Shown here piece after piece: positions 45,679-64,000 of a stretch of 64,000 nt of DNA (its first letter is position 1; each line of letters starts with the position of its first letter). Under the pieces are notes generated by a model, which was not told where the DNA came from, searched no databases, and saw only the letters and a list, made by a program, of their open reading frames with translations. The DNA is from a virus. The stretch lies in the IMG/VR virus record IMGVR_UViG_3300010413_000018, positions 76,729 to 140,728 of that record; one strand, written 5' to 3'. The position numbers were made by a program, and so were the translations under genes.

Positions 45679-45864
45679 CTACTGTAAACTACGCTTCAAT
45701 TTAAAAATATTCGCATCAGAAACATATCCTTGCTCAGTAGCTAACAACGCATAGGCTACAGCTAATTCTTCATCAACTTGACCAGTGTTTCCGCACAACG
45801 CACAAGTTCTTCCAAAATCTGCGTGTTTACTTAACCATTCACACTCTGGACACTTTACTTGCAT
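45679..45864 (-). CDS. Zinc-knuckle variable-loop family member
   Basis: CPEC-12aa-CALCGNTGQVDEELAVAYALL. Confidence 0.8.
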   Translation of the reverse strand: MQVKCPECEWLSKHADFGRTCALCGNTGQVDEELAVAYALLATEQGYVSDANIFKLKRSLQ

Positions 45865-46695
45865 TTACAGTTTTCTGTATTCCGGCTCAAACTCAGCAAG
45901 ACGCGCGCGCATGATCGTCACCGCATCCGGATTGTTATCCACCATCACAAACTGGCGTCCAAGCCGGCCGGCTGCTTCACCGAATGAACCACTGCCGGCA
46001 AAGAAGTCGAGCAGCAGTTCGCCGGGATTGGAGTGCACTTTGACGATTCTGTTCAATATTCCCAACGGTTTCTGGGTAGCGTAACCGGTTTTCTCTTTGC
46101 CGTTAGTAGCTACGATCGTGTGCCACCAACAGTCGGTCAGCGTCTTACCGCGCGCGGCTTTTTCCGGGCCAACCATTTCCGGAGCCATGTACGGTATGCG
46201 CTCAATCTCGTTATAATGGAACGTGTATGAGCGCGGATTCTTGGCATACCAAAGGATTGTGTCATGCTTCGCCGACCAACGTGTCTTTGAGCGTGCGCCG
46301 TAGTCGTAAGCCCAAACTATTTCGTTGATGAAGGACGGCCGGCCGAAGATTTCGTCCAGCATGATCTTACAGTAGTGCACTTCGCGATAGTCCATGTGAA
46401 GAAATAAGCTTCCAGTCGGTTTCAAAACTCGGAACGCTTCCGCTAAGCGCACCCGAATAAACGCGTGGAAGTTGAAGAACGTGTCGTTGTAACCTACACT
46501 CGGCCGTTTTTTCGTTTTGTAGCGGCGCCCTCCGAAACCTATACGATCGCCTTGAGCGTCTTTTTCCACCGCGATCCGGTTACGTTGCTGCTTCTTACCG
46601 GTGTTGAACGGTGGATCAACGTAAATCAAATCCACCGATCCGTCCGGCAGTGACTTTAAAAAACGTAAGTTATCGCCGAGCACAATCGCGTTCAT
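45865..46695 (-). CDS. DNA amino-methyltransferase (m6A/m4C, beta class)
   Basis: DPPF motif IV before DFFAGSG motif I; YATQKP. Confidence 0.93.
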   Translation of the reverse strand: MNAIVLGDNLRFLKSLPDGSVDLIYVDPPFNTGKKQQRNRIAVEKDAQGDRIGFGGRRYKTKKRPSVGYNDTFFNFHAFIRVRLAEAFRVLKPTGSLFLHMDYREVHYCKIMLDEIFGRPSFINEIVWAYDYGARSKTRWSAKHDTILWYAKNPRSYTFHYNEIERIPYMAPEMVGPEKAARGKTLTDCWWHTIVATNGKEKTGYATQKPLGILNRIVKVHSNPGELLLDFFAGSGSFGEAAGRLGRQFVMVDNNPDAVTIMRARLAEFEPEYRKL

Positions 46696-46958
46696 TATTC
46701 ACCTGGACGTCGTGAAGTTGGATCATTGCGTGGGCCACCGCGATCAGAGTTAGCACGTTGTTTTTTATTTTCAACAATGCACTCAAGTTGCGCTTCGTCA
46801 AACCATTGCGCTTCTATTGGTTTTCCTTCATGCAGGCCTTTAGGTTGTACTCCATAACGATTGCAGCCGTACAACCAGTGTGTAACAGCTATGACAATCC
46901 CTTCAAACCCACTTAAAGTGTCTTTAACATGGCTACCTAATTTAATTTCTGCCGACAC
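46695..46958 (-). CDS. Conserved phage hypothetical protein (SH3-like)
   Basis: LGSHVKDTLSGFEG...WLYGC...WFDE. Confidence 0.75.
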   Translation of the reverse strand: MSAEIKLGSHVKDTLSGFEGIVIAVTHWLYGCNRYGVQPKGLHEGKPIEAQWFDEAQLECIVENKKQRANSDRGGPRNDPTSRRPGE

Positions 46959-46991
46959 AGTTAGTATTTTCCTTTCTGTTTGATAGGCGGT

Positions 46992-47213
46992 TCAGTGACT
47001 GTATTCACACCCGTCGCAGGATGATTTACAGCACGCTTGCTTTTCCATGATCGGCGCTGAGCATAAGCCGAGCTTCATAGGTTTTTCACAAATAATTTCT
47101 TGAATTCGAGGCAATACTGTTGGATCGCCAGGTTCCGCGAAGTACACTAAACGTGAAATGGCTTCGAGTTTTGCTTTATCTGTTCGCATTACAAAGATCC
47201 TTCGACCGGACAC
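46992..47213 (-). CDS. Hypothetical protein with Cys-rich C-terminus
   Basis: CCKSSCDGC; probable start MRTDK. Confidence 0.55.
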   Translation of the reverse strand: MSGRRIFVMRTDKAKLEAISRLVYFAEPGDPTVLPRIQEIICEKPMKLGLCSAPIMEKQACCKSSCDGCEYSH

Positions 47214-47509
47214 GTATCTGTGTACCGCTGTTCGAGCATAGCGGTGTACGCTTCAACGCGCGCGGTATGCAAGCCTAGCTCAATGCAGTAAAGGTCGTAC
47301 ACCGCGCCTTCGTTAGCAGGGTCGCAGTAGTAAGTACGCTGTTGCCGTGCGGCCAGCAACACGTTGTACCATTCAACGTACTCATTGTACGCGGCTTGTT
47401 TGTCGCCTGGAATGCAGATCGGTTCTTTGTACGGAATTCCGCCGTACGTAATGCTGGATCCGCAACCTATCAGCAACGCAAATAAAAGTATCCACAACCA
47501 ATGTTTCAT
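47189..47509 (-). CDS. Lipoprotein
   Basis: MKHWLWILLFALLIGC lipobox; GGAGG RBS. Confidence 0.75.
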   Translation of the reverse strand: MKHWLWILLFALLIGCGSSITYGGIPYKEPICIPGDKQAAYNEYVEWYNVLLAARQQRTYYCDPANEGAVYDLYCIELGLHTARVEAYTAMLEQRYTDTCPVEGSL

Positions 47510-47536
47510 CGTAACCTCCGTTACTTGGTTAATGCT

Positions 47537-47758
47537 CTATTCGTTTTTATTTGAAGCGCAATCTTCCCAATCAATAGAGTGAAGTTCGTTTGATTCTGCA
47601 GCAGACAGATAACCTTGTGAGTTTTGTAAGAGTTGATAAGCAGCAGCCTTTTCCGGTGTAACGCCTTTACCGAAACAGGTGCCGCAAATGTTGTGTGGCT
47701 TTTTTGCATCCGGATGGAACCCGCAATACGAGCACGGCACGTACTTAGGCTTCTTCAT
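47537..47758 (-). CDS. Zinc-knuckle variable-loop family member
   Basis: CSYC-12aa-CGTCFGKGVTPEKAAAYQLL. Confidence 0.8.
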   Translation of the reverse strand: MKKPKYVPCSYCGFHPDAKKPHNICGTCFGKGVTPEKAAAYQLLQNSQGYLSAAESNELHSIDWEDCASNKNE

Positions 47759-47889
47759 ATCAGTGTCATCAGCTTGAAGACAAAATGTTTAAAAAACATT
47801 CCGAATAATGTGATCACAATAATGGCGAACATTAAAGCCGGCCACCTACTGTGCTCGTCTTCGTATCTGTGGTTTGATTCGTCACTCAC
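47755..47889 (-). CDS. 44-aa membrane peptide (not in ORF track)
   Basis: Hand translation MSDESNHRYEDEHSRWPALMFAIIVITLFGMFFKHFVFKLMTLI; overlaps both neighbours in coupled fashion. Confidence 0.55.
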   Translation of the reverse strand: MSDESNHRYEDEHSRWPALMFAIIVITLFGMFFKHFVFKLMTLI

Positions 47890-48139
47890 AGGAACCCTCC
47901 AAACGTTTGATGCTGGCTTCAAAGGTGTCTACCTTTTTTCCTAAACGCACGAACTTTCCAGCGGTAGTTCTGATAGCCGGATTGCGTGCTATTACAGAAA
48001 CGTCGCGCGCTCCTGTTAATAGCTTATTAAACAAAATGCGCATAGCTTTCACTTCATCAATGGTGAACGTAGTGGCTAAACCGGTTAGGCGTTGATTCAT
48101 GTTTCTCCTAGTACCATAAAAATGGTGATATTTCGACAA
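47882..48139 (-). CDS. Hypothetical protein
   Basis: AGGAG RBS before internal MNQR start. Confidence 0.65.
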   Translation of the reverse strand: MSKYHHFYGTRRNMNQRLTGLATTFTIDEVKAMRILFNKLLTGARDVSVIARNPAIRTTAGKFVRLGKKVDTFEASIKRLEGSCE

Positions 48140-48542: not shown

Positions 48543-48550
48543 AATAACCT

Positions 48551-48988
48551 CTAATCAGGCGCTACAAGGGCAAACGCCGTTTGAAAAAATTCAATACTGT
48601 CCAACAATTCTTGCTGATGTCGTCTAATTAAACTGCCTGGCACCGCGAACTCGCACAACGTGGCTAGTGCTAACACTTGATACTGGGACATTTTCATTAT
48701 CCCAAATTGCGCCGACCAACGCGTTGACTGGTGCGACTGGGTGTACATCGCGTGAGCAATCATAAAAGCGTCAATACTGCAAGCAGGCTGTTCGCGTAAT
48801 GTGTGCATTCTTTTTTCTGTAAAGCGCGGCGCCAACTTATTTCGATATTTCCGTGGAAACTTAAACGCGGAACCGCGTACTAAAGCCTGTATTTGGCGAT
48901 CAATAACTATGATGCTTTTCCATCCAGCAGTATGCGGGTACGGGCTAGACATTAGGCGCTCCAGCTGCTTTGTATACGATTTACCCAT
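48551..48988 (-). CDS. Hypothetical helical protein (TAxxL-tail group)
   Basis: C-terminus SIEFFQTAFALV. Confidence 0.65.
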   Translation of the reverse strand: MGKSYTKQLERLMSSPYPHTAGWKSIIVIDRQIQALVRGSAFKFPRKYRNKLAPRFTEKRMHTLREQPACSIDAFMIAHAMYTQSHQSTRWSAQFGIMKMSQYQVLALATLCEFAVPGSLIRRHQQELLDSIEFFQTAFALVAPD

Positions 48989-48994
48989 ATTTGG

Positions 48995-49078: not shown

Positions 49079-49084
49079 TAATTC

Positions 49085-49333
49085 ATGGTCAAAAAGTTTG
49101 AAGAAGAGCACACCGTATGTCCAATGTGCGGAGCGACTGGTGCGATTATTGCTCCGGTGATGCCTGGCTACGGCGATGAATGGTTTTCCGGAACGTGTCC
49201 GCTGTGCGACGATAACAAATTCATCAGTCACGACTTAGCCACCGCGTATTTACTGCTGGCGGATAACTTAGACCAGATACCGGCTGAATGGCGCGTGCGT
49301 AAGCTTAAGAAGGAGTTGGACTCGGCTAAGTAA
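49085..49333 (+). CDS. Zinc-knuckle variable-loop family member (only plus-strand copy)
   Basis: CPMC-22aa-CPLCDDNKFISHDLATAYLLL. Confidence 0.8.
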   Translation: MVKKFEEEHTVCPMCGATGAIIAPVMPGYGDEWFSGTCPLCDDNKFISHDLATAYLLLADNLDQIPAEWRVRKLKKELDSAK

Positions 49334-49748
49334 CAGTATGCTGGTCCAACCATTCCCACCTTAAGCACATAGCGGTTGTGATCATATTAACGGTTTCTTG
49401 ATATTGCGAACCTAACAAGCGTATCGGCGTATCAGGTAGCGCTAGCGCTTCTAATGAGTTTAATAAAATGCTGAGATTTAAAAAGCCTATGTACAGTTCT
49501 GCGATGCTAGACGTTGAATAACGCAACGCATCAATCACTCTACGTAAGCGATCGCACGCTGTCGACCCGTTTTCGGTAGAATTTGCATATAATCCAGTGG
49601 ACGGCTTATCTGGGTCAATGTCTAAAAAATGTGATTCACGAATCAACTGTTCGATGCTTTGACAAATCACGTTACCAATAACATAAATGTGCTGTTGGTT
49701 TAATGGAGTTAGCGGGAAACTGACACTAATAATGGGTGGCGTGTCCAT
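49326..49748 (-). CDS. Hypothetical helical protein (TAxxL-tail group)
   Basis: C-terminus TVNMITTAMCLR. Confidence 0.6.
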   Translation of the reverse strand: MDTPPIISVSFPLTPLNQQHIYVIGNVICQSIEQLIRESHFLDIDPDKPSTGLYANSTENGSTACDRLRRVIDALRYSTSSIAELYIGFLNLSILLNSLEALALPDTPIRLLGSQYQETVNMITTAMCLRWEWLDQHTVT

Positions 49749-49752
49749 CTAG

Positions 49753-49980
49753 CTACTCTAAAAGATAAATAACCCACATCACGTACAAGCAAAAAGCAAA
49801 TAGTAGCGCGCATTCAACCTTGACGCCGTAATGAAAATACATTGAAACGCGGCGCCACCAGTTGGTCGGAGTTTTTAACAGATCGGATACCAAGCCAATC
49901 AAAGGTAGCACCATGCTAAATAAAATGACGTAAAACCAACGGTCTTGCATCCACATGATAAAAGTAGCTGGATCTTCCAT
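49753..49980 (-). CDS. Small two-TM membrane protein
   Basis: Two hydrophobic segments. Confidence 0.65.
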   Translation of the reverse strand: MEDPATFIMWMQDRWFYVILFSMVLPLIGLVSDLLKTPTNWWRRVSMYFHYGVKVECALLFAFCLYVMWVIYLLE

Positions 49981-50429
49981 TAACCAATTTCCTTTTCCAT
50001 TAGTAGCGCAAGCGTTGTTTGTAGTAAAGAAAACTCTTTTTCCATCAACGCGCGCTGCTGTTTAAAATATGATGTCTTACATGCAAGCTGACAAATCGTA
50101 GTATACGCTTTGTAGTAGCAACTCAACCTATGCTCCAGTCTTTGCATGGTAAGACAAAAGTCAAAGTTACGTTCTTGTAGCACCCGTATTGACACACTGA
50201 AAGCGTCTTGGTCAAAGCGCTCCTTAAAATTTCTCATTACAGTGTAATCCGGCTTTTGAACAACTTTAAAATCTTGCAGGTGCTTAGGATACGTGCAGGT
50301 TGATAAAGTGCACCAAACCGCATCCACTAGAGTTTCCAATAATGATTGCAATTCCTTCAGACTAGTGTTAGGCAGTTGCTCAGGTATACGATACGTGAAA
50401 TCAGTCTTCGTTTTCATAGTAAGGTACAA
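49980..50429 (-). CDS. Hypothetical helical protein (TAxxL-tail group)
   Basis: C-terminus EFSLLQTTLALL. Confidence 0.6.
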   Translation of the reverse strand: MYLTMKTKTDFTYRIPEQLPNTSLKELQSLLETLVDAVWCTLSTCTYPKHLQDFKVVQKPDYTVMRNFKERFDQDAFSVSIRVLQERNFDFCLTMQRLEHRLSCYYKAYTTICQLACKTSYFKQQRALMEKEFSLLQTTLALLMEKEIG

Positions 50430-51206: not shown

Positions 51207-51476
51207 TCACTTCACATAGATCGTATTACTCGCTAAGTTGTTATTAACATTTTTATGCACACAATAAATTGGCTCAATCCAGTATCGCAATTCACCAGTA
51301 GCATCAACGACATATGGCAAGGATAATTGCATTTCGCCCCGTGAATTAATACCAATAGCAAATTCGCGGTAAGTGACGGTGGATCCTTCGTAGCATTCTT
51401 TAACCCAAGCGGTTAATTCTACTTTGAGAACGTCCACCTTTTCACACAATACGTTATGCTGAATGTACACTGTCAT
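51207..51476 (-). CDS. Hypothetical protein
   Basis: ATGA overlap with the upstream gene. Confidence 0.6.
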   Translation of the reverse strand: MTVYIQHNVLCEKVDVLKVELTAWVKECYEGSTVTYREFAIGINSRGEMQLSLPYVVDATGELRYWIEPIYCVHKNVNNNLASNTIYVK

Positions 51477-51682
51477 GGCGCTGGCCTGTTTTTTCGTTTC
51501 ATTTCTTCGTAGTGTTCATCAACGAAATCACGCGTTTTATTAGTTCTGCACTGACCACATTTATGCTTTTCTCCGTCAAAGAAACGATTTCCGTGCTTCC
51601 AATATCGGCATTCTTTATTGTTACACGTATCACACTGTACTTTACTGGATAAACTGGTACGCCTTTCGTTGGTAGGAAACAT
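51473..51682 (-). CDS. Small Cys-rich protein
   Basis: CDTC...C...CGQC. Confidence 0.6.
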   Translation of the reverse strand: MFPTNERRTSLSSKVQCDTCNNKECRYWKHGNRFFDGEKHKCGQCRTNKTRDFVDEHYEEMKRKNRPAP

Positions 51683-52205: not shown

Positions 52206-52727
52206 CTAAGCGTTATCCGACCAGCGGTCCCGCCTAAACAAATTATCCATCTTGTGGTGAAAAAGCTTCAGGCAAGCCGGGCACATCAAAAACGCTTTAT
52301 ACGTCTTCCCGTTAACTACCGCTTGCACTTGATGCTTGGCCTTTTCGTAACCGCACACTTCACACACACCGTTGTACTTTGTAAGGTCTAAGCACAGCAC
52401 GTCGGAATCCACAGTGCGCTCGAAACCGTGGGCTAAGTAAAAACGAAACTGCGAATCGGAGTCGTTATCGTAACCTCCGGGAGTAACGAGGAGCACTTCA
52501 CCGCCAACCTGCATAATCGCCAATATGAGGCGTTCCAGCAGTGCCCCTCCCAATCCCTTATTTCTTTCTTCCTTTGGGTTTACCAGTACCCGATTGACCC
52601 ACCATTCGGCGCCTATTCGCGAAGCTTCGGCGCAAGCGCGTAAAGATGACTCAAATACTGCCGCGCTGCAATGTTCAGGCGTAGCAGTAGTCCGGATCTT
52701 TTTAAGAATTTCGTCTGAAGGTTTCAT
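52206..52727 (-). CDS. GNAT acetyltransferase with C-terminal zinc finger
   Basis: VNRVLV...ERNKGLGGALL...FYLAHGF; CEVC...CPAC. Confidence 0.85.
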   Translation of the reverse strand: MKPSDEILKKIRTTATPEHCSAAVFESSLRACAEASRIGAEWWVNRVLVNPKEERNKGLGGALLERLILAIMQVGGEVLLVTPGGYDNDSDSQFRFYLAHGFERTVDSDVLCLDLTKYNGVCEVCGYEKAKHQVQAVVNGKTYKAFLMCPACLKLFHHKMDNLFRRDRWSDNA

Positions 52728-52774: not shown

Positions 52775-52990
52775 TCAACTTATTTTCGGATACCAATTCA
52801 ACTCGAAAAGTAACGCCTTTACGTCCCGCCAATAAATTAATCCTTTATCGTTAAACCTAAGAATGTACGCGGCAGCGACAAACTCAGGTACGACGCATCC
52901 GTCTTCACAAAGTGCGCAACCAACCTTAATATTTCGCTTGCCAGATCGATGATCAATACAGCACGGACACTGCACCAACTTTACTTCCAT
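52775..52990 (-). CDS. Zinc-knuckle variable-loop family member
   Basis: CPCC-13aa-CALCEDGCVVPEFVAAAYILRF. Confidence 0.8.
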   Translation of the reverse strand: MEVKLVQCPCCIDHRSGKRNIKVGCALCEDGCVVPEFVAAAYILRFNDKGLIYWRDVKALLFELNWYPKIS

Positions 52991-52992
52991 AA

Positions 52993-53274
52993 CTACGGCC
53001 GATCATTGCGCGGCAGCTGAAATCCTTGTTGCCGTAGTTTACGACACGCTAGGAACGGCAACTCAACCAGCCCAAGTATTTGGTAAGCTCCGGCTAATTC
53101 TACGGTTACAGAGCCAATTCCACCACATAGCGGGCACATCTTTGTCTTGTATCCAGTCGTTACGCCACGCTTTGTAATACCGTACTTTCTGATCTCAATG
53201 TTCTGCGATAGGTGTGCGAATACGCGCCCACTACCACAGCAAGCCGGGCACTCAACCCGCTTTTTGTGCTTCAT
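52993..53274 (-). CDS. Zinc-knuckle variable-loop family member
   Basis: Start MKHKK; CPAC...CPLCGGIGSVTVELAGAYQIL. Confidence 0.8.
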   Translation of the reverse strand: MKHKKRVECPACCGSGRVFAHLSQNIEIRKYGITKRGVTTGYKTKMCPLCGGIGSVTVELAGAYQILGLVELPFLACRKLRQQGFQLPRNDRP

Positions 53275-53590
53275 TTTCCATCTCCAGAAGTTCATTGATC
53301 GCATCCCAATGAGGTAGCTCTTCAATATTAACAATAACGCTGTCGTGAATGCCCATGACTTGTGGCGGATAGTTCGGGTAGAAAAGAAAAAACGCGATAC
53401 GCGTTTGCTCGTGAACTGTTTTTTGATTTTGACACAATGGACAATCGTTGTGGTAATTATGAAAACGCTTGGCACAGCGATCTAAACAATATGTATCATT
53501 ACAGAAACCTTTTCTACTAATGCCAGATAACGGATAGCGTAATATAAAACCGGTTCCGCCACATAACGGGCACTGCACTTGTTTACTCAT
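53252..53590 (-). CDS. Zinc-knuckle variable-loop family member (extra Cys/His in loop)
   Basis: Start MSKQ; CPLC...CPLCQNQKTVHEQTRIAFFLFYP. Confidence 0.8.
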   Translation of the reverse strand: MSKQVQCPLCGGTGFILRYPLSGISRKGFCNDTYCLDRCAKRFHNYHNDCPLCQNQKTVHEQTRIAFFLFYPNYPPQVMGIHDSVIVNIEELPHWDAINELLEMENEAQKAG

Positions 53591-53861
53591 CACCCGATCC
53601 CAATGCAATTATTGTTTCAACGTCCTTGAGCGAAACTGGGTCCATGTACAAACTGCGGTAGTGCTCAGCAGGAAACTGAAGGCAAAAAGCCGTAGCTACG
53701 GATGACGGAACGCACTGATTGCCGCTGCACAACGGACAGTCAACGTGCTGCACCATTCTACTGGCCCAACGTGAAAACTTAAATCGAGTTGCCTCATCGT
53801 TTACTGGCATTACAAATCCTTTACCTGCGCACATCGGGCATACGCTTTTAAACTGACGCAT
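53583..53861 (-). CDS. Zinc-knuckle variable-loop family member
   Basis: Start MRQF; CPMC...CPLCSGNQCVPSSVATAFCLQFP. Confidence 0.8.
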   Translation of the reverse strand: MRQFKSVCPMCAGKGFVMPVNDEATRFKFSRWASRMVQHVDCPLCSGNQCVPSSVATAFCLQFPAEHYRSLYMDPVSLKDVETIIALGSGDE

Positions 53862-54013: not shown

Positions 54014-54607
54014 CTAGAACGCAACGCGCGCTTTCATTTTATTGATCTCGTCGCGTACGGTTTGTTCGCGATCGGCCTCTACCTCAATGCGGTGCATTTC
54101 CGCTTCCGCTTCGTCAACCGTAATTGAAAGCCGACCGTACGGCACATGCATCATAACCGCGCAGTCAGGCCCAAAACCAGTCTCGACGCTCTCGGGAACT
54201 GTAAGCTTACGACCACAGCGCGCACATCGGCCTTCGTGCCAGAACTCAACCTTATTTAGGTTAGAGCCTTCACCTTGAAGTTGATGCAAAAACCAACGGA
54301 TCGCTTTCACGCTAGGCGCCGTATCTCCTACGCGTGACTTACGACCGTGGTTGTACTGAAGGCCGGATCGCTTCGGGAATACCTGACCGAGGTACTGGTA
54401 GCCGGTTTCGTTGTCGGATCCGCTAAGTACCTTGATAAAAATCACGTCGAAGTCGGTGTTGCCGTCAGACAACTGCTCCTTAGGCGTGCTGAACTTGTAG
54501 GTGAAGCGTGTGCCGCTGCTGGTGGAAACTAGCGTAAAAGTCGATTTTCCGCCCATTACGACACTGCGCATAATGGATTTACTGGTTATTTGCTTTCGGT
54601 GCTCCAT
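54014..54607 (-). CDS. DUF6011-domain protein
   Basis: CARCGRKLTVPESVETGFGPDC; FTLVS..SGTRFTYK and VLSGSDNE N-terminal motifs. Confidence 0.85.
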   Translation of the reverse strand: MEHRKQITSKSIMRSVVMGGKSTFTLVSTSSGTRFTYKFSTPKEQLSDGNTDFDVIFIKVLSGSDNETGYQYLGQVFPKRSGLQYNHGRKSRVGDTAPSVKAIRWFLHQLQGEGSNLNKVEFWHEGRCARCGRKLTVPESVETGFGPDCAVMMHVPYGRLSITVDEAEAEMHRIEVEADREQTVRDEINKMKARVAF

Positions 54608-54879: not shown

Positions 54880-54885
54880 ACTTTT

Positions 54886-54932
54886 ATTATAGCTCCATTC
54901 CGTAATAGTGCAAATAAAAAGTAACGTTGCAA
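54886..54932 (-). promoter_or_regulatory. Conserved promoter, copy 2
   Basis: TTGCA-acg-TTACTTTTTATTTGCA-N17-TATAAT. Confidence 0.85.
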
Positions 54933-54963
54933 ATAAAATAGCGTAAGTTATCGGTTTCCCTTA

Positions 54964-55110
54964 TTAAATTCCTTTCTAAACCGGGCAACTTTGGAGTATT
55001 CAAGCAACCTTGTAATTCTGGTATACCGGTTTACCAGTAATAGGGTTCTTACCTGCATCACGTAAATAACCGCGCCCTTCACACAGCTCGCATTTTACAA
55101 GTCTACTCAT
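54964..55110 (-). pseudogene. Decayed zinc-knuckle family copy
   Basis: MSRLVKCELCEGRGYLRDAGKNPITGKPVYQNYKVA*ILQSCPV*KGI* in one frame. Confidence 0.7.
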
Positions 55111-55375
55111 GCAACGCCGTATTATAGCTAAGCCGCAGTTCAGTTACTGCTTTGTACTCAGCAACGTGTAAATCACCAAACATCAGCGTGAAGGCTGCAC
55201 TCAAGTCTACCGTAACAAGTCCTGCACCGTAGCAAAGTGGGCAGCGCATTGAATCGCCATTGATATATGCCCAATGTATAATACGTATTATCTCACTGAA
55301 AGCCCCCAGAATGATCCTCCGCTTACCGCGACAAAGCGGACAACGTTCTCTATGATGTTTTCTACGCGCTGCCAT
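55103..55375 (-). CDS. Zinc-knuckle variable-loop family member
   Basis: Start MAARR; CPLC...CPLCYGAGLVTVDLSAAFTLMFG. Confidence 0.8.
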   Translation of the reverse strand: MAARRKHHRERCPLCRGKRRIILGAFSEIIRIIHWAYINGDSMRCPLCYGAGLVTVDLSAAFTLMFGDLHVAEYKAVTELRLSYNTALHE

Positions 55376-55376
55376 C

Positions 55377-55667
55377 TTACATACGCTTAATATCGACAAT
55401 ATCTTCCACAGTAGGCAGTTCATCAATTTCTGCTTCTGGACAGTAGTTAGGAAACATCAACGTGAACGCTACCGCCCAACGTTCCAAGACTTTGCGCGTA
55501 CCGTTACAAAGTGGACAATGCGCTGTAATCAAACGAAAATCCGGATTACGCATAGGTCTAAAATAATGATACGTAATGTCTGCAGTAAACGCACGCATAT
55601 GCCCCATTGGAACAACAGCTTGAAACGCACACATCGGACACCCACACTTTGGTTGCTTACGTTTCAT
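55377..55667 (-). CDS. Zinc-knuckle variable-loop family member
   Basis: CPMC...CPLCNGTRKVLERWAVAFTLMFP. Confidence 0.8.
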   Translation of the reverse strand: MKRKQPKCGCPMCAFQAVVPMGHMRAFTADITYHYFRPMRNPDFRLITAHCPLCNGTRKVLERWAVAFTLMFPNYCPEAEIDELPTVEDIVDIKRM

Positions 55668-56056
55668 TATGCTTCAATCAAGTCTTGGCGAGGGTCGCCG
55701 CCGTATTCATCACACAGGGCTACGACTGCTGAGCCGTGCTTTTTTAACGCTGCTTTAAACCGTGAATTCCGATCGGCTTCTGAAGTTAATTCTTGCTGTT
55801 CACCAACAGCAGCCCAATCTAGTAATGCCGACATCACCGGAGAATTGTCAAACGTGCCAAACCTAAGCGTATATTGGCACGCATTGTACACGCGACGGGT
55901 ATCCCGTAGCGTTAGCTCTATCTTACAGCTATCTTGCGGTGTTTGATCGCCTTGTGCGGATTGATCCATTATAAGGGCTAAAATATAGCCCAACTCGTAA
56001 ACTGATTTTCTTGCGTTGTCTTTACTCATGATTTCCTTTCTTGCGCTTTTGCGCAT
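55667..56056 (-). CDS. Hypothetical protein
   Basis: Probable start MSKDN after AAGGA. Confidence 0.65.
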   Translation of the reverse strand: MRKSARKEIMSKDNARKSVYELGYILALIMDQSAQGDQTPQDSCKIELTLRDTRRVYNACQYTLRFGTFDNSPVMSALLDWAAVGEQQELTSEADRNSRFKAALKKHGSAVVALCDEYGGDPRQDLIEA

Positions 56057-56310
56057 TGAAGTACTGCTTCCACTTCATTGTCTGCTACCATTGTATAACC
56101 AGACGAACTGTAGCCATAACCAAAATCCGGCCGGATTAAGAAAAACGCGGTATGCAACTCAATGCTTACCGATTGATGCCCATCGCACAACACACAATTA
56201 AGCACTTCCCAAGAGCCGCAAGCCGTATTGTTGATTATGTATCCGGTGTTTGGCACTCGTACAACTAACCCGGTTCCGAGGCACAATGGACATGTAAGCT
56301 TATCGCTCAT
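56026..56310 (-). CDS. Zinc-knuckle variable-loop family member
   Basis: Start MSDK; CPLC...CVLCDGHQSVSIELHTAFFLIRP. Confidence 0.8.
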   Translation of the reverse strand: MSDKLTCPLCLGTGLVVRVPNTGYIINNTACGSWEVLNCVLCDGHQSVSIELHTAFFLIRPDFGYGYSSSGYTMVADNEVEAVLQCAKAQERKS

Positions 56311-56409
56311 ATTGACAGCCACGCTACCAAAAGTAGTAGCCCTAAAAAGCAACTAACTATAACGACTTCGTTGTACATCAGCGAAAATAAGATCCTTCCT
56401 TATTAGCGT

Positions 56410-56733
56410 TTACGGTTCATTTTGAAAACAACCAAACGCGCGCGCTTGCTTCAGCTTATACGCACCTATTGACCTAACGTCTCCGTTCCGCAGCCGCGTT
56501 CCAAAAGCAGGTTCCAACAATAAAAACGCCGCTGATACAGTCTCCAGCACTTTTCCCATTCCATTACACAGCGGACAAACTATCACCATCCAAGAACCGC
56601 GCGCCACTAAAAGGCTGGTGTACTCACCTAGCGGTTTGTAGCGATCTCGATTGCCAAATAAAACAACTTCCTGCGTATTGCACATTGGACAGCGCACTAA
56701 TTCTGTTGATGTTGGCATGCTTATTTTATTCAT
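56410..56733 (-). CDS. Zinc-knuckle variable-loop family member
   Basis: CPMC...CPLCNGMGKVLETVSAAFLLLEP. Confidence 0.8.
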   Translation of the reverse strand: MNKISMPTSTELVRCPMCNTQEVVLFGNRDRYKPLGEYTSLLVARGSWMVIVCPLCNGMGKVLETVSAAFLLLEPAFGTRLRNGDVRSIGAYKLKQARAFGCFQNEP

Positions 56734-56746
56734 GGTTACTTAATAC

Positions 56747-57073
56747 TCACTGATTAAAACTTTTGAGAAGCATTTTAATATCGCGCATACGTGGAATGTT
56801 TGTATCCCAAACCGTGGAATCCCCATCATCACGATAGTCAGGAAATAATAAGCTCAGCGCGGTAGCGATCGCAGAACTCGTGACTTTCACTCCATGACAC
56901 AAAGGACACTTCACCGTCATTTCCCAGCTCATTGTAGTTCCAGCACGACCGTCTAAATATGCGTCATTAGGATCTTCTGTGGTTACAATATTTGGATGGT
57001 TAGGATCTGGCGTTTGTACCACTCCGTGACCAAAGCACAATGGGCACGTTACTTTTGACACATGCGCCCCCAT
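56747..57073 (-). CDS. Zinc-knuckle variable-loop family member
   Basis: CPLC...CPLCHGVKVTSSAIATALSLLFP. Confidence 0.8.
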   Translation of the reverse strand: MGAHVSKVTCPLCFGHGVVQTPDPNHPNIVTTEDPNDAYLDGRAGTTMSWEMTVKCPLCHGVKVTSSAIATALSLLFPDYRDDGDSTVWDTNIPRMRDIKMLLKSFNQ

Positions 57074-57633
57074 TCTTCAAATAGGCTAGCTATAGTAGAC
57101 TGCGTCGGCCAGAACTTTCCAAGTATCGCCGTATACGCGGTTATATGCTGTGTGTAATCAGGATGCATTAATTGAAAAATTGAAGACAGCTCAACTTCAA
57201 CTTCACCGCTACTGTCGCACAACGGGCAATCAACGAACTCTTCCCAATAGCACACGTGACTGTTAGTGCCGTCATAGTAGTCGCCAGGCGAAAACTCCCC
57301 AGCCGATATGCTAACCGGTTTAGTGTTTTCTTTTGGAGTCCGCACTGAGCAGTTTCCAAAGCAAAGTGGACATGTGACTTTATTTTGCATGGCGCTTGCA
57401 TGGCGCATATTAAAATTAAACTGTAAAATATTCTTTGTCTTCAAGATTAAAACATGGCCAAACCGCAGTACAAACGCCACGTACTTTTCTTCTGATAGTA
57501 AACCAGTTCCGTTGCATAGTATGCACTTTACGCTGCCAATGTTACTGGCTTGGCTCACGCGAACCACATACTTTTTAAATGGAGCTATTAGTTTAGTCCC
57601 AGCGCACATGGGACAAGTTACGCGCTTATCCAT
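57049..57633 (-). CDS. Zinc-knuckle family, two units fused in frame
   Basis: CPMC...CILC...YVAFVLRFG then MQNKVTCPLC...CPLC...LSSIFQLMHP; internal ATG at 57390. Confidence 0.8.
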   Translation of the reverse strand: MDKRVTCPMCAGTKLIAPFKKYVVRVSQASNIGSVKCILCNGTGLLSEEKYVAFVLRFGHVLILKTKNILQFNFNMRHASAMQNKVTCPLCFGNCSVRTPKENTKPVSISAGEFSPGDYYDGTNSHVCYWEEFVDCPLCDSSGEVEVELSSIFQLMHPDYTQHITAYTAILGKFWPTQSTIASLFEEWGRMCQK

Positions 57634-57866
57634 TTAGATGTATCCCGTTGCAACTGTTTAAGTGCTATCACGTCAATAATCCACTCATCGCCAAACCACA
57701 AAATGTAAGCACTGTGATGTTCCACGCTTATTACACCAGCACTGCCACACAACAAACATGGAAGCGTACCTTTTTGACTGCCGGCAACAGTGCGAACAAT
57801 GTTATGCCCAAACGGTATTACTTTCTTAGTACCATCACACATCGGGCACCGCACTTTTCCTTTCAT
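57618..57866 (-). CDS. Zinc-knuckle variable-loop family member
   Basis: CPMC...CLLCGSAGVISVEHHSAYILWFG. Confidence 0.8.
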   Translation of the reverse strand: MKGKVRCPMCDGTKKVIPFGHNIVRTVAGSQKGTLPCLLCGSAGVISVEHHSAYILWFGDEWIIDVIALKQLQRDTSKWISA

Positions 57867-58057
57867 GACCGGTCCTTATAAACGTGAGGGCGCGCGATCC
57901 GATCTCTGCGTTCTAAGTCTTCCCAATCATACTCCGGTGATGGAAGCTCGCGCTTTATCTGTTGAATTAATTCTGCAGTGTGCCGTAGATTGCTGCAACT
58001 ACGACATTGGCAATCCGGCCAGTCTATAGTACGCTCAACCACCATAGCGCTCCCCAT
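57863..58057 (-). CDS. Hypothetical protein (start uncertain)
   Basis: CQCRSC motif; stop overlaps the next ATG. Confidence 0.45.
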   Translation of the reverse strand: MGSAMVVERTIDWPDCQCRSCSNLRHTAELIQQIKRELPSPEYDWEDLERRDRIARPHVYKDRS

Positions 58058-58134
58058 ACAACCGCGATCTCAATAAGACCAACTGCCAGCACTACCCAAT
58101 CTATTTGTGTGTCAACTTCAAATTGAATTTTCAT
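58024..58134 (-). CDS. 36-aa membrane peptide (not in ORF track)
   Basis: ATGA overlap, GGAGG RBS; MKIQFEVDTQIDWVVLAVGLIEIAVVWGALWWLSVL. Confidence 0.55.
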   Translation of the reverse strand: MKIQFEVDTQIDWVVLAVGLIEIAVVWGALWWLSVL

Positions 58135-58436
58135 CTTCTGGCCTCCATCGCATTGATCACAACTTCCATAGTTATAGGTATATGTTCTCGTCTATACAGA
58201 TCATAGCCGTAATTTGGTGCTAACAAACGAAACGCGATCTCTACTACGCGCTTAACCATATTGGTTCCAGCACATAACGGACAACTCACGCACGGCCAAC
58301 CAATTGTGTTTCTGCTCTTACCAGGTGAATCAAAAATTGTCGATAAAATATATTGACTCTGCGGTCCAATCCGAACATGCCCTAACCCATTACACATAGG
58401 GCACTGAACTAACTTATTTTCATATTCTTCTGTCAT
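58131..58436 (-). CDS. Zinc-knuckle variable-loop family member
   Basis: CPMC...CPLCAGTNMVKRVVEIAFRLLAP. Confidence 0.8.
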   Translation of the reverse strand: MTEEYENKLVQCPMCNGLGHVRIGPQSQYILSTIFDSPGKSRNTIGWPCVSCPLCAGTNMVKRVVEIAFRLLAPNYGYDLYRREHIPITMEVVINAMEARR

Positions 58437-59032
58437 TGAATAACTCGCAGCTTAGGCCAAGTTTCTAACCACCGCTTATCACGGATCCGCGCCTCAAATA
58501 TGTTGCGCTCTTTTATTACACACTCCAATTCGAGCGCCCAAAGCGACTCCAGCCCGTAGCCGGTTATGATCATCAACCCAGTTTTATCCAGCCTGCAGGC
58601 AACCGCAGTAGCCTTGTCCACCCACGTTGTAATAGCATGGCCCATGTTACGATAAGGATTCCGGTTCAAAAATCTGTGAGCGCGCGCTTGATTTATTACT
58701 TCCCAATTAACCGTGGGTTCTATTGCAACCAGCTTATCCTGAAAATACTCGTCATAGTACGGCTGAACGCGGTTTACGTCAAACCACACTACATCCACGT
58801 CGTTCAACGGCGTGCGCACCTTGTAACCGTGCAGATGATCCCACACCAAGTTTCTAATTATACCGCCTCCAATGTAAAACGCTGGATTTAACTCCTTTAT
58901 TGCTTCTAAGCACCGAACGCACAACGGGTCGTTCAAAATAAGCCTAGCCGTCTTTTCAAATAAACACTTCACGCTAAGTACTCCGGATGTATTCAACGTC
59001 TTTGGGAGTAGGTAAATCCCAAGTCGGTGCAA
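58433..59032 (-). CDS. Nucleotidyltransferase (NTP_transf_6 / DUF925 type); start uncertain
   Basis: IGGGIIRNLVWD...NDVDVVWFD...WEVINQARAH...KRWLETWPKL. Confidence 0.85.
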   Translation of the reverse strand: MHRLGIYLLPKTLNTSGVLSVKCLFEKTARLILNDPLCVRCLEAIKELNPAFYIGGGIIRNLVWDHLHGYKVRTPLNDVDVVWFDVNRVQPYYDEYFQDKLVAIEPTVNWEVINQARAHRFLNRNPYRNMGHAITTWVDKATAVACRLDKTGLMIITGYGLESLWALELECVIKERNIFEARIRDKRWLETWPKLRVIQ

Positions 59033-59096
59033 AAGTGATACGTAGGAAACGCTGTTTGAAGCTTAACGACAAACTGATTTAGGGTAGTCATAGCGT

Positions 59097-59894
59097 TTAA
59101 ACGTTGTACTTGGTTTTACCTTGTGCGACGATTGCGTATTTACTGAACGTCTTAGTAAAAACTCGATCCAGTAATGGTCGATCGTGGTCAGTGTAGCTAT
59201 TAACAAAACGGTCAGATCCGTTAATAAAACGCTGTGCTTTTTTAGGCTTAACGCCGTGCACCCGTTTAAACTCAGCGGCTACTTTTACTCCGAACGAAGA
59301 CCAATGGCGGCGAGCTTGCTTCGCAGTAAATCCACGCGACAGTAAATACCCGCTGATATCAACCAAACGCGTGCTTATTTGAGGGTCGTCACCGCTTACT
59401 AACGCAGCAGAATGTAACGCGTAGTTCTGGCAAAACTCCGGGCTTAGCGCGCCAGATTTACAAGCATCTTGAATTATTTTGTTCGCGTAGAACTGCCCCA
59501 ACATAAAATCCTTACGGTCATTAGCCAGAGCACTCGTGTCGGTAGTTGGTTTAATAAAATGATTGCGCAGCACAGTAGCGCACTCGCACTGATACCGTGC
59601 TAGCTTAGGCTTCAACGCGGAGTTTACTTTGTTGGCCGAAATTGTAGCAAGCCACATCGGTAGCGCGTCGAGGTCGATCATCACATTTTTGTACTGTTTT
59701 CCGTCAGTTCCAGTCGCGGTCATTTTGACCGTAACTGCCCAAGGTGCTGCTTGAAGCTTGCGGCGTTGTACGTCCGAATCAATCCCCAACGCCTTACACA
59801 CGCGCCGGACGCTGACGTAGATCTTACCGTCGACGTGTTGGGCTACTTCAAGACTGTCACCGTAAAAATCAAACTTAGTAATTTCATTGCTCAT
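59097..59894 (-). CDS. Phage antirepressor (P22 Ant N-terminal domain)
   Basis: FDFYGD...VSVRRVCKALGID...LPMWLATI...YQCEC. Confidence 0.88.
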   Translation of the reverse strand: MSNEITKFDFYGDSLEVAQHVDGKIYVSVRRVCKALGIDSDVQRRKLQAAPWAVTVKMTATGTDGKQYKNVMIDLDALPMWLATISANKVNSALKPKLARYQCECATVLRNHFIKPTTDTSALANDRKDFMLGQFYANKIIQDACKSGALSPEFCQNYALHSAALVSGDDPQISTRLVDISGYLLSRGFTAKQARRHWSSFGVKVAAEFKRVHGVKPKKAQRFINGSDRFVNSYTDHDRPLLDRVFTKTFSKYAIVAQGKTKYNV

Positions 59895-59920
59895 AAGATA
59901 GTCCCTTTCCTGTAATTAGC

Positions 59921-60187
59921 TTATGGGCGCTTTGAAAAACTTTTGCGTAGCTCAGTAATTAAATCGTACGCGATCGCCATCCAGTCTTCGCAGCCGTAGA
60001 GCAATAAATACGCGGCGTTCTGTTCGTCGGTGACCAACGTCTTCCCGTAACAAAGCGGACAGCGCATCACTCGGTTACCCCAAATTCTGCTCAAGTGAAC
60101 AAGACGCTCGTAAGTATCCGGTTCAGTCGTGGTACACACCGTCCCGATTCCGTCACATACCGGGCACCGCACGCTAGGCTTACCCAT
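59921..60187 (-). CDS. Zinc-knuckle variable-loop family member
   Basis: CPVC...CPLCYGKTLVTDEQNAAYLLLYG. Confidence 0.8.
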   Translation of the reverse strand: MGKPSVRCPVCDGIGTVCTTTEPDTYERLVHLSRIWGNRVMRCPLCYGKTLVTDEQNAAYLLLYGCEDWMAIAYDLITELRKSFSKRP

Positions 60188-60464: not shown

Positions 60465-60477
60465 GTCCTACCCCTTT

Positions 60478-60789: not shown

Positions 60790-60795
60790 ATTTAT

Positions 60796-60842
60796 AGCAT
60801 AGCGCCTTTTAGGTAGAATGCAAATAAAAAGTAACAGTGCAA
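60796..60842 (-). promoter_or_regulatory. Conserved promoter, copy 3
   Basis: TTGCA-ctg-TTACTTTTTATTTGCA-N17-TATGCT. Confidence 0.8.
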
Positions 60843-60860
60843 GAAATAAAACTTGCTGGG

Positions 60861-61145: not shown

Positions 61146-61151
61146 ATGTGC

Positions 61152-62138
61152 TTATCCGTGGCGCTTCGCTATTCGGTCTAAAAAGGCGCGCTTATACTTA
61201 CGATATTCTGGTAGCTTGAGTGCGCCTTCTAGGCTAATTGCTTCACAGTCACTACGCCTAGACCCAAAATTAGCATCGTAATGAGCAGCAATCACATACC
61301 CATGATACGCTGGGTCACCAATAACTCCGACTGCCTTGTATTTTTCTCGCACCGTTTCTACGTGCGTGTGAACAATATCTGCAATATCATGTAGCATTAA
61401 TAATTCGGTATACCGCGTAAACGGAGGTAACGAAGTGGTAAGGTCAAACCCGTCTTCTTCCCGTAAGCTTACCACTAAACGAGACGCTATTTCTAACTCG
61501 GTAGTGGGTGGGGATAACCGGCGAAGCGCTTCCAACGTTTTGTAAAACTTTTTATCAAGGCGTATTGCACGCCTTTCCGCTAAACGCTCTTCTTCTAAAC
61601 GCACCTTATTCGCTTGCGCTTCACGCCGTAGCGCCAATGTTTCTTTTTGAATGGCTAAGCGTTCATCAGTGGAGTTACTGCTATTTTGTAAAGAATAGGA
61701 TCCACCGCTGAAAATCACCGGCAGTACGTCGGTCACCAGCCAACGGCGCATCGCGACGCCTAGCGGTTGTTGGGTCTTTAGACAAACCATTAGCATACCG
61801 GAGTAAGTGAGAACGGTTAGATTCGGAGTGTTCTTAGAAATCGCCGGCCTCCACTCCTCACCACTAGAGGCTGATACGGCCTCCACTCCATTATTTTCCG
61901 CTAAAAACGTCTGAATCTCCCGACCGTATAGAACACGATAATCACCACCGGTATTTTCGCGTTCCCACTTAATAAAATCCTTTCCCCATTTACTAGAGTC
62001 CGCGATTCTATTTGCGACGTGGCGTTTGTCTGAATACCCCAAACGCGCGCTCACGTCTTGGGCGATCCACACCGGTTGATTATCCCACTTGTAGTGCTGG
62101 AGTTGTTTGCCTTCAAATAATGTTATGTCAGCTTTCAT
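61152..62138 (-). CDS. BRO-N domain DNA-binding / antirepressor protein
   Basis: PVWIAQDVSARLGY...VLTYSGMLM...MRRWLVTDVLP.I..GGSY; start refined to MKADI. Confidence 0.85.
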   Translation of the reverse strand: MKADITLFEGKQLQHYKWDNQPVWIAQDVSARLGYSDKRHVANRIADSSKWGKDFIKWERENTGGDYRVLYGREIQTFLAENNGVEAVSASSGEEWRPAISKNTPNLTVLTYSGMLMVCLKTQQPLGVAMRRWLVTDVLPVIFSGGSYSLQNSSNSTDERLAIQKETLALRREAQANKVRLEEERLAERRAIRLDKKFYKTLEALRRLSPPTTELEIASRLVVSLREEDGFDLTTSLPPFTRYTELLMLHDIADIVHTHVETVREKYKAVGVIGDPAYHGYVIAAHYDANFGSRRSDCEAISLEGALKLPEYRKYKRAFLDRIAKRHG

Positions 62139-62157
62139 AATAAGCTTTACTTTCTTT

Positions 62158-62586
62158 TTATTGTCGAACAGCAATAACTTCAAACACCGAAGTGCAGCTA
62201 TTACCAAATTCATCACGCAGTTGCATTTCTGCGGCGCCTTCAAGTCGACTGCCGGAATTATTAGTTTGGTCTGTTACCACTTCCCAAGCGCGCGCGTACG
62301 CTATTCCATTAACGAGATAGTAGCAAGTTCCAGATTTTACTAATGAGCAATAGTTATTAGACCAGTGCACATAAGTGACTTCGCAGTTTACTTCTGGCGT
62401 TGGATCTCCTATTACACTAACCGACGTTAAACTTTCGGCTGAGCTTTCCACTTGGCACCCATCATCAATTGGAATTAACTCCAACTGGTAGGCACCAGCG
62501 CGATCTTCTGGATCGCACGATACGACTTCAGCGGTGCACGCTCCTAAAAGCGTAAATAAAAGTATTCCTAAAATTAATTTCTGCAT
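62158..62586 (-). CDS. Cys-rich lipoprotein
   Basis: MQKLILGILLFTLLGAC lipobox. Confidence 0.75.
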   Translation of the reverse strand: MQKLILGILLFTLLGACTAEVVSCDPEDRAGAYQLELIPIDDGCQVESSAESLTSVSVIGDPTPEVNCEVTYVHWSNNYCSLVKSGTCYYLVNGIAYARAWEVVTDQTNNSGSRLEGAAEMQLRDEFGNSCTSVFEVIAVRQ

Positions 62587-62640
62587 TGTTATTTTCCTTT
62601 CCTAAATAGTAAATGTGCTTTCTTGAAAAGTTTTGTGCTG

Positions 62641-63021
62641 TTATCCGCTTAGGGCTTTGCGCAGTACCACCATTGCCTTTATCGTTAGCGCTCCATTTCC
62701 GCCAGCTAGAACGTACGCAGTGCACAGATCGGGTATTACTCGCCCCGTACCTTTACACAGCGGACAAGGACAAGGGACGGCGTAATAGTTTCCCATCCAT
62801 ATACGGTCTTTGTTAACCCACCCGCCGTATTTATCAACCATTTTGACAACTGGTAGGATGCGCTTTTCAAATTCTTTATTGATTTGTTGATTGGACTCCT
62901 CCCATGCCATGATTCTCAATTCCCTAGCCACGTATTCTGCAGTCCACCTATAACACGCGGGACATGTTACGCTGGCTTCGACTTGTGGTTTTTGGGCTTT
63001 CGGCTTGTGGACGTCGGGCAT
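62641..63021 (-). CDS. Zinc-knuckle variable-loop family member (longest loop, 62 aa)
   Basis: CPAC...CPLCKGTGRVIPDLCTAYVLAGG. Confidence 0.8.
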   Translation of the reverse strand: MPDVHKPKAQKPQVEASVTCPACYRWTAEYVARELRIMAWEESNQQINKEFEKRILPVVKMVDKYGGWVNKDRIWMGNYYAVPCPCPLCKGTGRVIPDLCTAYVLAGGNGALTIKAMVVLRKALSG

Positions 63022-63195
63022 ATTTTCTTAATGGGCGATTCTCGAAAAATTTAGCGCAAATTTTAAAATAGCCGATCACGAGTTTCGAAAAATTGCGCCA
63101 GTTTTTTGGAAAACCAGGACGCTCCACCTACATCGGCTAAATTGTACGTTTTTCCCCTCTCCAAATTGCCTACATATACCTACAGCTAATAGCTG

Positions 63196-63227
63196 TCGTC
63201 TAGTCGTCTAGGCGTCTAGTCGTCTAG
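63196..63227. repeat. Four tandem 8-bp repeats (T/G)CGTCTAG
   Basis: TCGTCTAG TCGTCTAG GCGTCTAG TCGTCTAG read directly. Confidence 0.9.
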
Positions 63228-63593
63228 GAGGTGGAGCGCGGTACTGAGGTAATCGTAGTCGCGCTGCAAGTCAGCCCATAATTGGTGGAGGGCAGGCGAC
63301 TGTTTAGCGTCGATGATCTCGCACAAGCGCACTACTATTTCCCGTACGCTAGGCAACTCAACGGAAAGCATGAACCACGGCGACACGTTCTCTACGTCAG
63401 GATCATACCTACTAGCCAGCGTAGTGCCTTGCCTACACAATTCTTTTATCCAATACTGGTCCATATCGCGGTACTTCTTAGCACGCCATACGCTATTCCG
63501 TAATGACTTACACAATCGACCCAGCCGTTGGGTATACTGTTGAGTCATCTCTACTGGGTGGTTAGGGTCAGGCATGGGGGCGCCGTCTTTCAT
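63216..63593 (-). CDS. Hypothetical helical protein (TAxxL-tail group)
   Basis: Start MKDGA by ATGA overlap; C-terminus DYDYLSTALHLL. Confidence 0.6.
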   Translation of the reverse strand: MKDGAPMPDPNHPVEMTQQYTQRLGRLCKSLRNSVWRAKKYRDMDQYWIKELCRQGTTLASRYDPDVENVSPWFMLSVELPSVREIVVRLCEIIDAKQSPALHQLWADLQRDYDYLSTALHLLDD

Positions 63594-63633
63594 TTGTTGA
63601 GGGTACATAGTGGGCAGGGTTGGTGTTGCAAGA

Positions 63634-63873
63634 TTACTGCTCCTTATGTAATACGTCGTACCGCAACTGCTGTAGGCGCCTGACAATATTGTGGTGCTTA
63701 CGGTAAGTCCCGTTAGCGGTAAACAATATCTCATTTTTAATCAGCCAATAAGCCGTGTCCAACGCAGTGGGCACGTAACGTTCGCCTTTACATAATGGGC
63801 ATCGGGATCTTATGTTGACGAGTACGTAATAGTCCACGCCGCTACCACCACACCACGGGCACTTACTCTTCAT
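63634..63873 (-). CDS. Zinc-knuckle variable-loop family member
   Basis: CPWC-16aa-CPLCKGERYVPTALDTAYWLI. Confidence 0.8.
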   Translation of the reverse strand: MKSKCPWCGGSGVDYYVLVNIRSRCPLCKGERYVPTALDTAYWLIKNEILFTANGTYRKHHNIVRRLQQLRYDVLHKEQ

Positions 63874-64000
63874 GACCCATCACCTCAGCCCTCAGCTTAC
63901 GTATAGCGCGCTCCAGCTCCCATGGGTCTTGGGTATTAATGAGGTTTTTACTCAAAGCGTCCACTGATAGCATAAAGGCTGACTCAAGCTCCACGGTTAC
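63863..64000 (-). CDS. C-terminal part of a further zinc-knuckle family member (starts beyond the window)
   Basis: Hand translation VTVELESAFMLSV...AIRKLRAEVMGHEE* matches the family helix. Confidence 0.65.
   Translation of the reverse strand, partial: VTVELESAFMLSVDALSKNLINTQDPWELERAIRKLRAEVMGHEE

Follow-up and report, generated by a model that had tools for sequence, protein, structure and literature searches.

Introduction

Large zinc-ribbon expansions in a phage are already a known kind of finding, since Iyer et al. (2021, PMC7824862) described a lineage-specific expansion of ~35 copies in Bacillus phage G. Here we describe a family of small zinc-ribbon proteins encoded by IMG/VR virus record IMGVR_UViG_3300010413_000018, which is like the phage G expansion in comprising dozens of paralogs within one phage genome, but differs from it in having about 60 copies in 141 kb, an insert-bearing ribbon, a helix in common with a second group of proteins and a probable Myxococcota host. 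The analysis followed an initial annotation of the window, by which we mean the last 64 kb (positions 76,729-140,728) of the 140,728-bp record. Bare coordinates are window positions, C1 coordinates refer to the whole record (G000), and labels such as L021 and L071 denote contigs of related strains and phages. Literature searches found no description of this zinc-ribbon family; nor did the papers searched report its density in a 141-kb genome, its recombination between strains or the helix common to a second group. The explanation we favour, with a probability of roughly 0.4, is that the proteins are early binders in which a loop and a tail pick a host target while a shared helix docks on a common partner, the host probably being a member of the Myxococcota.

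The closest described scaffold is that of anti-TRAP, in which a ribbon with short strands and a hairpin is followed by a helix, and the C-terminal helix forms a three-helix bundle (PMC11255114). Anti-TRAP/RtpA of Bacillus (PF15777, NF058604; PDB 2bx9) resembles the present family in its two CxxC pairs within a zinc ribbon, its short strand pairing and its amphipathic helix, which is nearly in register. However, anti-TRAP is a single-copy protein of 53 residues that inhibits TRAP as a trimer; its loop is short and a second helix is absent, whereas the family described here adds a second helix and lies in a putative phage early region. The cysteine-rich domain of DnaJ (PF00684) and BSD2 have similar CxxCxGxG-like knuckles and gave the best hidden Markov model (HMM) and Foldseek matches, over about 40 residues. 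The DnaJ domain has four CxxCxGxG repeats and two zinc sites, compared with two CxxC pairs and one predicted zinc site per domain here.

As regards genome organisation, SPO1 Gp53 is an adaptor-like protein of the host protease ClpCP and thereby a precedent for phage adaptors (PMC6873191), and the hyperplastic regions of T4-type phages contain repeated early-promoter cassettes (PMC2839356). The SPO1 host-takeover module and the T4-type regions are like the present locus in that small, here putatively early, genes stand behind repeated host-type promoters and are gained and lost between strains. To our knowledge, neither has been described as consisting of dozens of paralogs that are built on a single scaffold and have a helix in common.

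A family of about sixty zinc-ribbon proteins

The 19 genes and 20 domains proposed for the window by the initial annotation were confirmed. All 19 are intact open reading frames with ATG starts that encode 61-194 amino acids (aa), and one of them (57049-57633) carries two domains. The loop, defined as the segment between the two CxxC pairs, is 12-62 aa long as had been claimed, and the reported edge partial and short remnant are both present. The copies are listed below with their loop lengths in aa and, where available, the expectation value (E) or the predicted local distance difference test (pLDDT) score.

45679..45864, minus strand, family gene, 61 aa, loop 12
47537..47758, minus strand, family gene, 73 aa, loop 12, first knuckle CSxC
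49085..49333, plus strand, family gene, 82 aa, loop 22, AlphaFold model pLDDT 88
52775..52990, minus strand, family gene, 71 aa, loop 13
52993..53274, minus strand, family gene, 93 aa, loop 34
53252..53590, minus strand, family gene, 112 aa, loop 39
53583..53861, minus strand, family gene, 92 aa, loop 30
55000..55110, minus strand, remnant of 36 aa, the result of a 439-bp deletion truncating two copies that are intact in strain L021
55103..55375, minus strand, family gene, 90 aa, loop 29
55377..55667, minus strand, family gene, 96 aa, loop 37
56026..56310, minus strand, family gene, 94 aa, loop 28, loop in common with the L028 ortholog, AlphaFold model pLDDT 86
56410..56733, minus strand, family gene, 107 aa, loop 34; strain L021 has an extra family gene (326 bp) just upstream
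56747..57073, minus strand, family gene, 108 aa, loop 42
57049..57633, minus strand, family gene with two domains, 194 aa, loops 26 and 44
57618..57866, minus strand, family gene, 82 aa, loop 26
58131..58436, minus strand, family gene, 101 aa, loop 36
59921..60187, minus strand, family gene, 88 aa, loop 31, truncated in strain L071
60861..61145, minus strand, family gene, 94 aa, loop 36, missing from strain L071
62641..63021, minus strand, family gene, 126 aa, loop 62, mosaic allele in strain L071
63634..63873, minus strand, family gene, 79 aa, loop 16
63863..64000, minus strand, partial copy at the contig end, helix and tail only, E 0.06

The genes are tightly spaced, their stop and start codons frequently overlap, and clear Shine-Dalgarno sequences are absent. 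For the genes at 52993, 53252, 53583, 55103 and 56026, the real starts are probably the ATGs at 53274, 53590, 53861, 55375 and 56310, respectively. A decayed copy that had also been reported could not be identified with confidence; the nearest candidate, at 51473-51682, encodes a 69-aa protein with two CxxC pairs and no family helix (E 1.5), which has a 63% identical counterpart in L018.

The consensus originally given for the domain stood as a general scheme but not as a strict pattern, since several of its positions were found in only 8-16 of the 20 window domains: xGxG after the first CxxC in 9 (a further difference from DnaJ), CPLC in 13, the glutamate in 9, A[FY]xL in 16 and x[FY][GP] in 8. 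The strict features are the four cysteines and the distance between the second CxxC and the alanine of the helix, which is 12 residues in 47 of the 57 complete domains of the genome (11 in nine, 13 in one). An HMM built from 17 window copies alone detected about 40 additional copies beyond the window, almost all of them at E < 0.01; reversed decoys gave nothing better than an E of 1.0, which argues that the family pattern is not due to chance. Of the 57 complete domains, 20 belong to the window, 36 lie at C1:4.0-18.5 kb and a single one is located at C1:27.5 kb; to these are added two variants, one remnant and one edge fragment. A family size of about 20, as first estimated, is therefore correct for the window, but for the genome the number is about 60. 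Together, the 58 family genes occupy 10.6% of the 140,728-bp genome.

The record was judged complete (CheckV 100%) and encodes DNA polymerase and helicases as well as terminase, portal, capsid, and tail sheath and tube proteins, a gene set that identifies the phage as a myovirus. Strain contig L071 follows the record from C1:1204 back to position 1, continues for about 1.6 kb and resumes at C1:140,600. Since this contig bridges the ends of the record, the record is circularly permuted and its two arrays are one region. In L071 (2172-2245 and 1446-2806), the stretch between the G000 ends holds a tRNA-Glu(TTC) gene, a fused family member and a gene of the second group described below.

A predicted ribbon with a protruding hairpin and two helices

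The AlphaFold models of the 49085 and 56026 copies contain the same secondary-structure elements despite their unrelated loops. In both, the order is strand, knuckle, loop in the form of an extended hairpin, second knuckle, strand, helix 1 and helix 2 (E9-11, E20-23, E34-37, E46-48 and H49-62 in the 49085 model). The domain is thus modelled as a four-cysteine zinc ribbon with a protruding variable hairpin and two helices, similar to anti-TRAP, and the two models support the earlier expectation of one shared fold with a protruding loop. We infer that the domains bind zinc.

The proposal that no characterised family has this architecture was borne out by searches of Pfam, PHROGs, NCBIfam and PADLOC, which gave nothing above the curated cut-off where one was shown and only generic CxxC matches; none of the 57 members matched a PADLOC defence model. 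A sequence search of the PDB returned only DnaJ and UvrA knuckles at E < 1e-3, Foldseek found no match at E <= 1e-3 in the PDB or BFVD, and the ESM Atlas yielded unnamed clusters only. The best VIA-align Z scores were 3.6 and 3.5, values that indicate neither a new nor a different fold. DnaJ fragments were rejected because each domain has two CxxC pairs, the best PF00684 score was 20.4 bits (10 window members; cut-off 32.7) and, as had been stated, there is no J domain: PF00226 was unmatched across the genome in a search that detected 12 of 14 positive controls.

The resemblance to anti-TRAP raises the possibility that the helix forms homo- or mixed bundles displaying several loops, which the second group would join. 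The strand-hairpin-helix order is the same in both, the C-terminal helix of anti-TRAP makes such a bundle of three helices (PMC11255114), NCBIfam RtpA (NF058604) matches 2 of the 57 members (best E 7e-6) and anti-TRAP was among the top Foldseek rows (E 0.2). However, the whole-chain match appears poor (rmsd, root-mean-square deviation, 8-9 A, with 8.9 A in Foldseek; VIA Z 2.3, rmsd 4.7, 43 aligned), the best PF15777 score among ten members tested was 19.7 bits, under the 32-bit Pfam cut-off, and the extra helix, not present in anti-TRAP, could cover the bundle face. A complex prediction with three 49085 copies and zinc scored 0.00 and was informative neither way. We consider such bundles very improbable. 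The scaffold is anti-TRAP-like, yet the family belongs to neither the anti-TRAP nor the DnaJ family.

Matches to the Q antiterminators (phrog_127, best E 8e-4) were confined to profile positions 114-162 of 253. Membership of the Q type was rejected since the match covers the zinc region and not the full length with the DNA-binding region. These weak matches, a Foldseek match to Q-lambda at E about 3 and the basic N-termini of many members would nonetheless suit regulators that bind DNA, RNA or RNA polymerase (either specific transcription factors or structural DNA-binding proteins), the role put forward for the phage G zinc ribbons (PMC7824862). We regard this role as quite improbable here. 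A helix-turn-helix is absent, the loops are 5-62 unrelated residues, the median net charge of the family is +1 (loop +1), unlike typical nucleic-acid binders, and sixty regulators are hard to square with about 14 similar promoters.

The family helix also ends a second group of array proteins

The family helix has the fixed register V-[PST]-x-E-L-A-[AT]-A-[YF]-x-L-L and is followed by the variable second helix. In the same register, helical proteins of 100-180 residues that lack the zinc ribbon and lie in the arrays end in hydrophobic-[ED]-[TSG]-A-hydrophobic-x-L-L. This genome encodes five or six of these second-group proteins, L018 and L028 have six, and the arrays contain at least 14 overall. 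A further one is encoded at C1:27730, directly after the outlying family gene, and those in the window are the following.

33417..33752, plus strand, second group, outside the array, non-zinc helical protein with the same terminal motif
48551..48988, minus strand, second group, non-zinc helical protein with the same terminal helix motif
49326..49748, minus strand, doubtful member of the second group, weak motif
49980..50429, minus strand, second group, non-zinc helical protein with a weaker terminal motif
63216..63602, minus strand, second group, same terminal helix motif, start uncertain

The bodies of these proteins are only weakly alike. A helix that ends unrelated non-zinc proteins of the same arrays is what a shared docking handle would predict, and in L080:15443 and L071:1446 the helix also stands behind other zinc domains, separated from them by long inserts. 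An artefact of ribosome-binding sites was rejected as its origin, because in the zinc family the helix lies 21 or more codons before the stop. In hold-out loci, fetched after the second group had been recognised, 3 of 17 non-family genes ended in the motif (one by the strict pattern, two by a looser one) compared with 1-2.5% expected per gene (p 0.0007-0.008), p values that are optimistic since the group had been selected by this motif and the looser pattern, which accounts for two of the three genes, was written at the time of the test.

These observations bear on another explanation, in which the proteins are stand-alone stoichiometric inhibitors or decoys: each copy would have its own target, bound through loop and tail, and the helix would be a structural core with no common partner. 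The copy number, early location, paralog-specific loops and turnover fit this explanation equally well, and the helix could pack on the following second helix in both models. A purely structural helix, however, predicts recurrence of its register neither on non-zinc array proteins nor on other zinc domains, and we judge stand-alone inhibitors unlikely, although the likeliest of the alternatives.

Old paralogs, conserved loops and turnover between strains

Paralogs within the family have a median identity of 24% and a maximum of 43%, by which measure they are old; recent tandem amplification was rejected because identity never exceeds 43%. Averaged over pairs, identity is 14% for the loop and 18% for the tail, whereas the scaffold, leaving out its cysteines, reaches 38%. 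Contrary to what had first been suggested, the loop is therefore not the sole hypervariable part, since the tail is nearly as variable and the domain has two variable surfaces. A tree of 125 domains was mostly unresolved, and copies did not group by genome.

Several loops are preserved between different phages, as seen for C1:16629 with L028:4710 and P0285 and for 56026 with L028:6372; six cross-genome pairs among 3,828 had z > 9. This argues that the loops carry specific information and are paralog-specific rather than continuously hypervariable, so that the hypervariability originally described was not supported in that form. In other ortholog pairs, such as L028:9276 and L077:3443, the tail is kept and the loop changed.

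Comparison of near-identical strains revealed gains and losses. Where the window has the 439-bp deletion and remnant, two copies are intact in strain L021 (98.4% identical), which also has an additional family gene. Strain L071 lacks about 2.6 kb, including one copy and part of another, and carries one further copy in the gap between the record ends. In its 62641 allele, the first knuckle and loop are strongly diverged between identical flanks, a mosaic that suggests homologous recombination with a diverged relative. A diversity-generating retroelement was rejected as the source of variation, since the genome has no PF00078 (reverse transcriptase) match and no template/variable repeat pair; self-BLAST of the genome revealed no near-identical pair, and two family genes matched each other once, over 59 bp at 78%.

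Point polymorphisms gave a ratio of nonsynonymous to synonymous changes (pN/pS) of 1.1 in loops compared with 0.21 in neighbouring genes (11:3 vs 48:61, p 0.02). This large share of amino-acid changes, the frequent deletions and truncations in near-identical strains and the few copies held by distant relatives would all be expected from a largely neutral birth-and-death of a compact, stable mini-fold, of which few copies are useful at once. Such neutrality appears improbable to us, because the 57 intact domains keep four cysteines and a fixed linker at a median identity of 24%, subfamily loops and tails are kept between phages with almost no DNA similarity, and the cost amounts to 10.6% of the genome.

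Promoter-like cassettes and a putative early region

A promoter-like cassette, consisting of a doubled TTGCA, a 17-bp spacer and a TATAAT-like box with an ATG a few bases on, occurs about 14 times in the genome, and 12 of these occurrences are in or beside the array region. Three lie in the window.

45624..45687, minus strand, sigma70-like promoter cassette (doubled TTGCA, 17-bp spacer, TATACT), repeated sequence with ATG a few bases downstream
54883..54946, minus strand, promoter cassette upstream of the four family genes at 52775-53861
60793..60856, minus strand, promoter cassette upstream of the family run 55000-60187

The ATG begins about 6-7 bases past the -10 box, which suggests leaderless early mRNAs. 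The array genes would accordingly be read early from promoters of the host sigma70 type.

Related phages and the probable host

In a profile search of 1.84 billion representatives, other genomes yielded about 30 full-length homologs in addition to strain variants, and every homolog that was traced to DNA sits in an array. L018/L019 have 13 distinct domains, L028/L030 have 21 and L020 has three within 944 bp; family genes make up 11 of 13 genes in L077 and 6 of 18 in L078. Across phages, 140 distinct domains were gathered. Non-family neighbours in L018, L019 and L028 are 34-63% identical to those of this phage, with DNA similarity almost nil. The repertoire is thus old and lineage-wide, and its copies are gained, lost and recombined between strains. 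The GC content of the array-bearing phages is 45-51%, compared with 64-70% in the checked loci of relatives with about 70% identical capsid proteins (L023-L027, G001 and G003).

Proteins 44-69% identical to the tail sheath occur in genomes labelled mostly Myxococcota or Deltaproteobacteria, and on the strength of these sequence relatives the host is probably a myxobacterium or other member of the Myxococcota. No close cultured phage was found. The family was not found in 18 mostly Myxococcota genomes holding a related tail sheath, which are incomplete metagenome-assembled genomes searched with no positive control. As regards homology to the phage G family (YP_009015343.1), one family member had no tblastn match in 50,697 phage records. 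Searches of viral and metagenome collections with degenerate DNA patterns gave chance loci only.

Other genes of the array and genome

Interspersed in the array are genes for a DNA methylase (PF01555; 45865-46695), a protein with a weak GNAT match (52206-52727), a DUF6011 protein (54014-54607) and a nucleotidyltransferase (PF06042; 58433-59032); the L078 array likewise holds an RlaP nucleotidyltransferase. Two antirepressor-like genes (P22_AR_N; weak Bro-N) also lie within the array, at 59097-59894 and 61152-62243, the second of which is missing from strain L071. A strongly acidic protein with several CPxC units and poly-Glu runs (37751-38188) falls outside the family. The 919-aa terminase large subunit (29624-32383) has an internal endonuclease match and probably contains an intein. 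Repeat-rich regions at C1:826-3932 flank a two-gene operon (2184-3366). At C1:56399-60972, an ATPase (phrog_1297) adjoins a 503-aa protein (phrog_1314), a possible chaperone-like module and a candidate phage hub.

Discussion

The reading that we favour runs as follows. The genes would be expressed early from the repeated host-sigma70-type promoters, and the paralog-specific loop and tail of each product would recognise a different host protein, most plausibly one of defence or regulation. The conserved helix would serve as a portable handle for docking on a single partner common to all members, each of which would then be adaptor-like. The partner would most likely be a Clp-type host protease or chaperone, or RNA polymerase, and a phage hub is possible.

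Several points, beginning with the optimistic p values of the hold-out loci, weigh against this reading. A profile comparison of the two groups aligned only 13 columns with a probability of 3%. Conservation of the helix could reflect only its being the core of a small fold. Distant high-GC relatives (capsid about 70% identical) carry 0-2 copies in the fragments covered. When the mosaic gene was removed, the family as a whole was enriched in amino-acid changes (29:13 vs 48:61 in neighbours, p 0.007), an excess that fits relaxed as well as diversifying selection. Loop polymorphisms did not differ significantly from those of scaffold and tail (p 0.7); the loop diversification initially proposed is thus supported by one recombined loop in a near-identical strain, but not by a polymorphism excess specific to loops.

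More speculatively, the system might follow, in a bacterial virus, the F-box/SOCS-box logic used by viruses of eukaryotes, in that a short helix on about 60 zinc ribbons and the second group plugs substrate-binding heads into one host machine (protease or chaperone), giving a recombining library that removes or redirects myxobacterial defence proteins. We put this forward as a doubtful extension.

Phage paralog families of this size are rare, and here one takes up a tenth of a mid-sized genome, with turnover visible between strains. The scaffold is a natural small zinc fold that tolerates inserts of 5-62 residues, and since the proteins are small, all members could be screened at once. If the helix does dock on one partner, the family would amount to a bacterial-virus system of modular adaptors, and it would indicate that there are numerous host targets in myxobacteria, a group whose phages have hardly been studied. 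If the helix is merely structural, the family would still be an undescribed, lineage-wide candidate anti-defence library.

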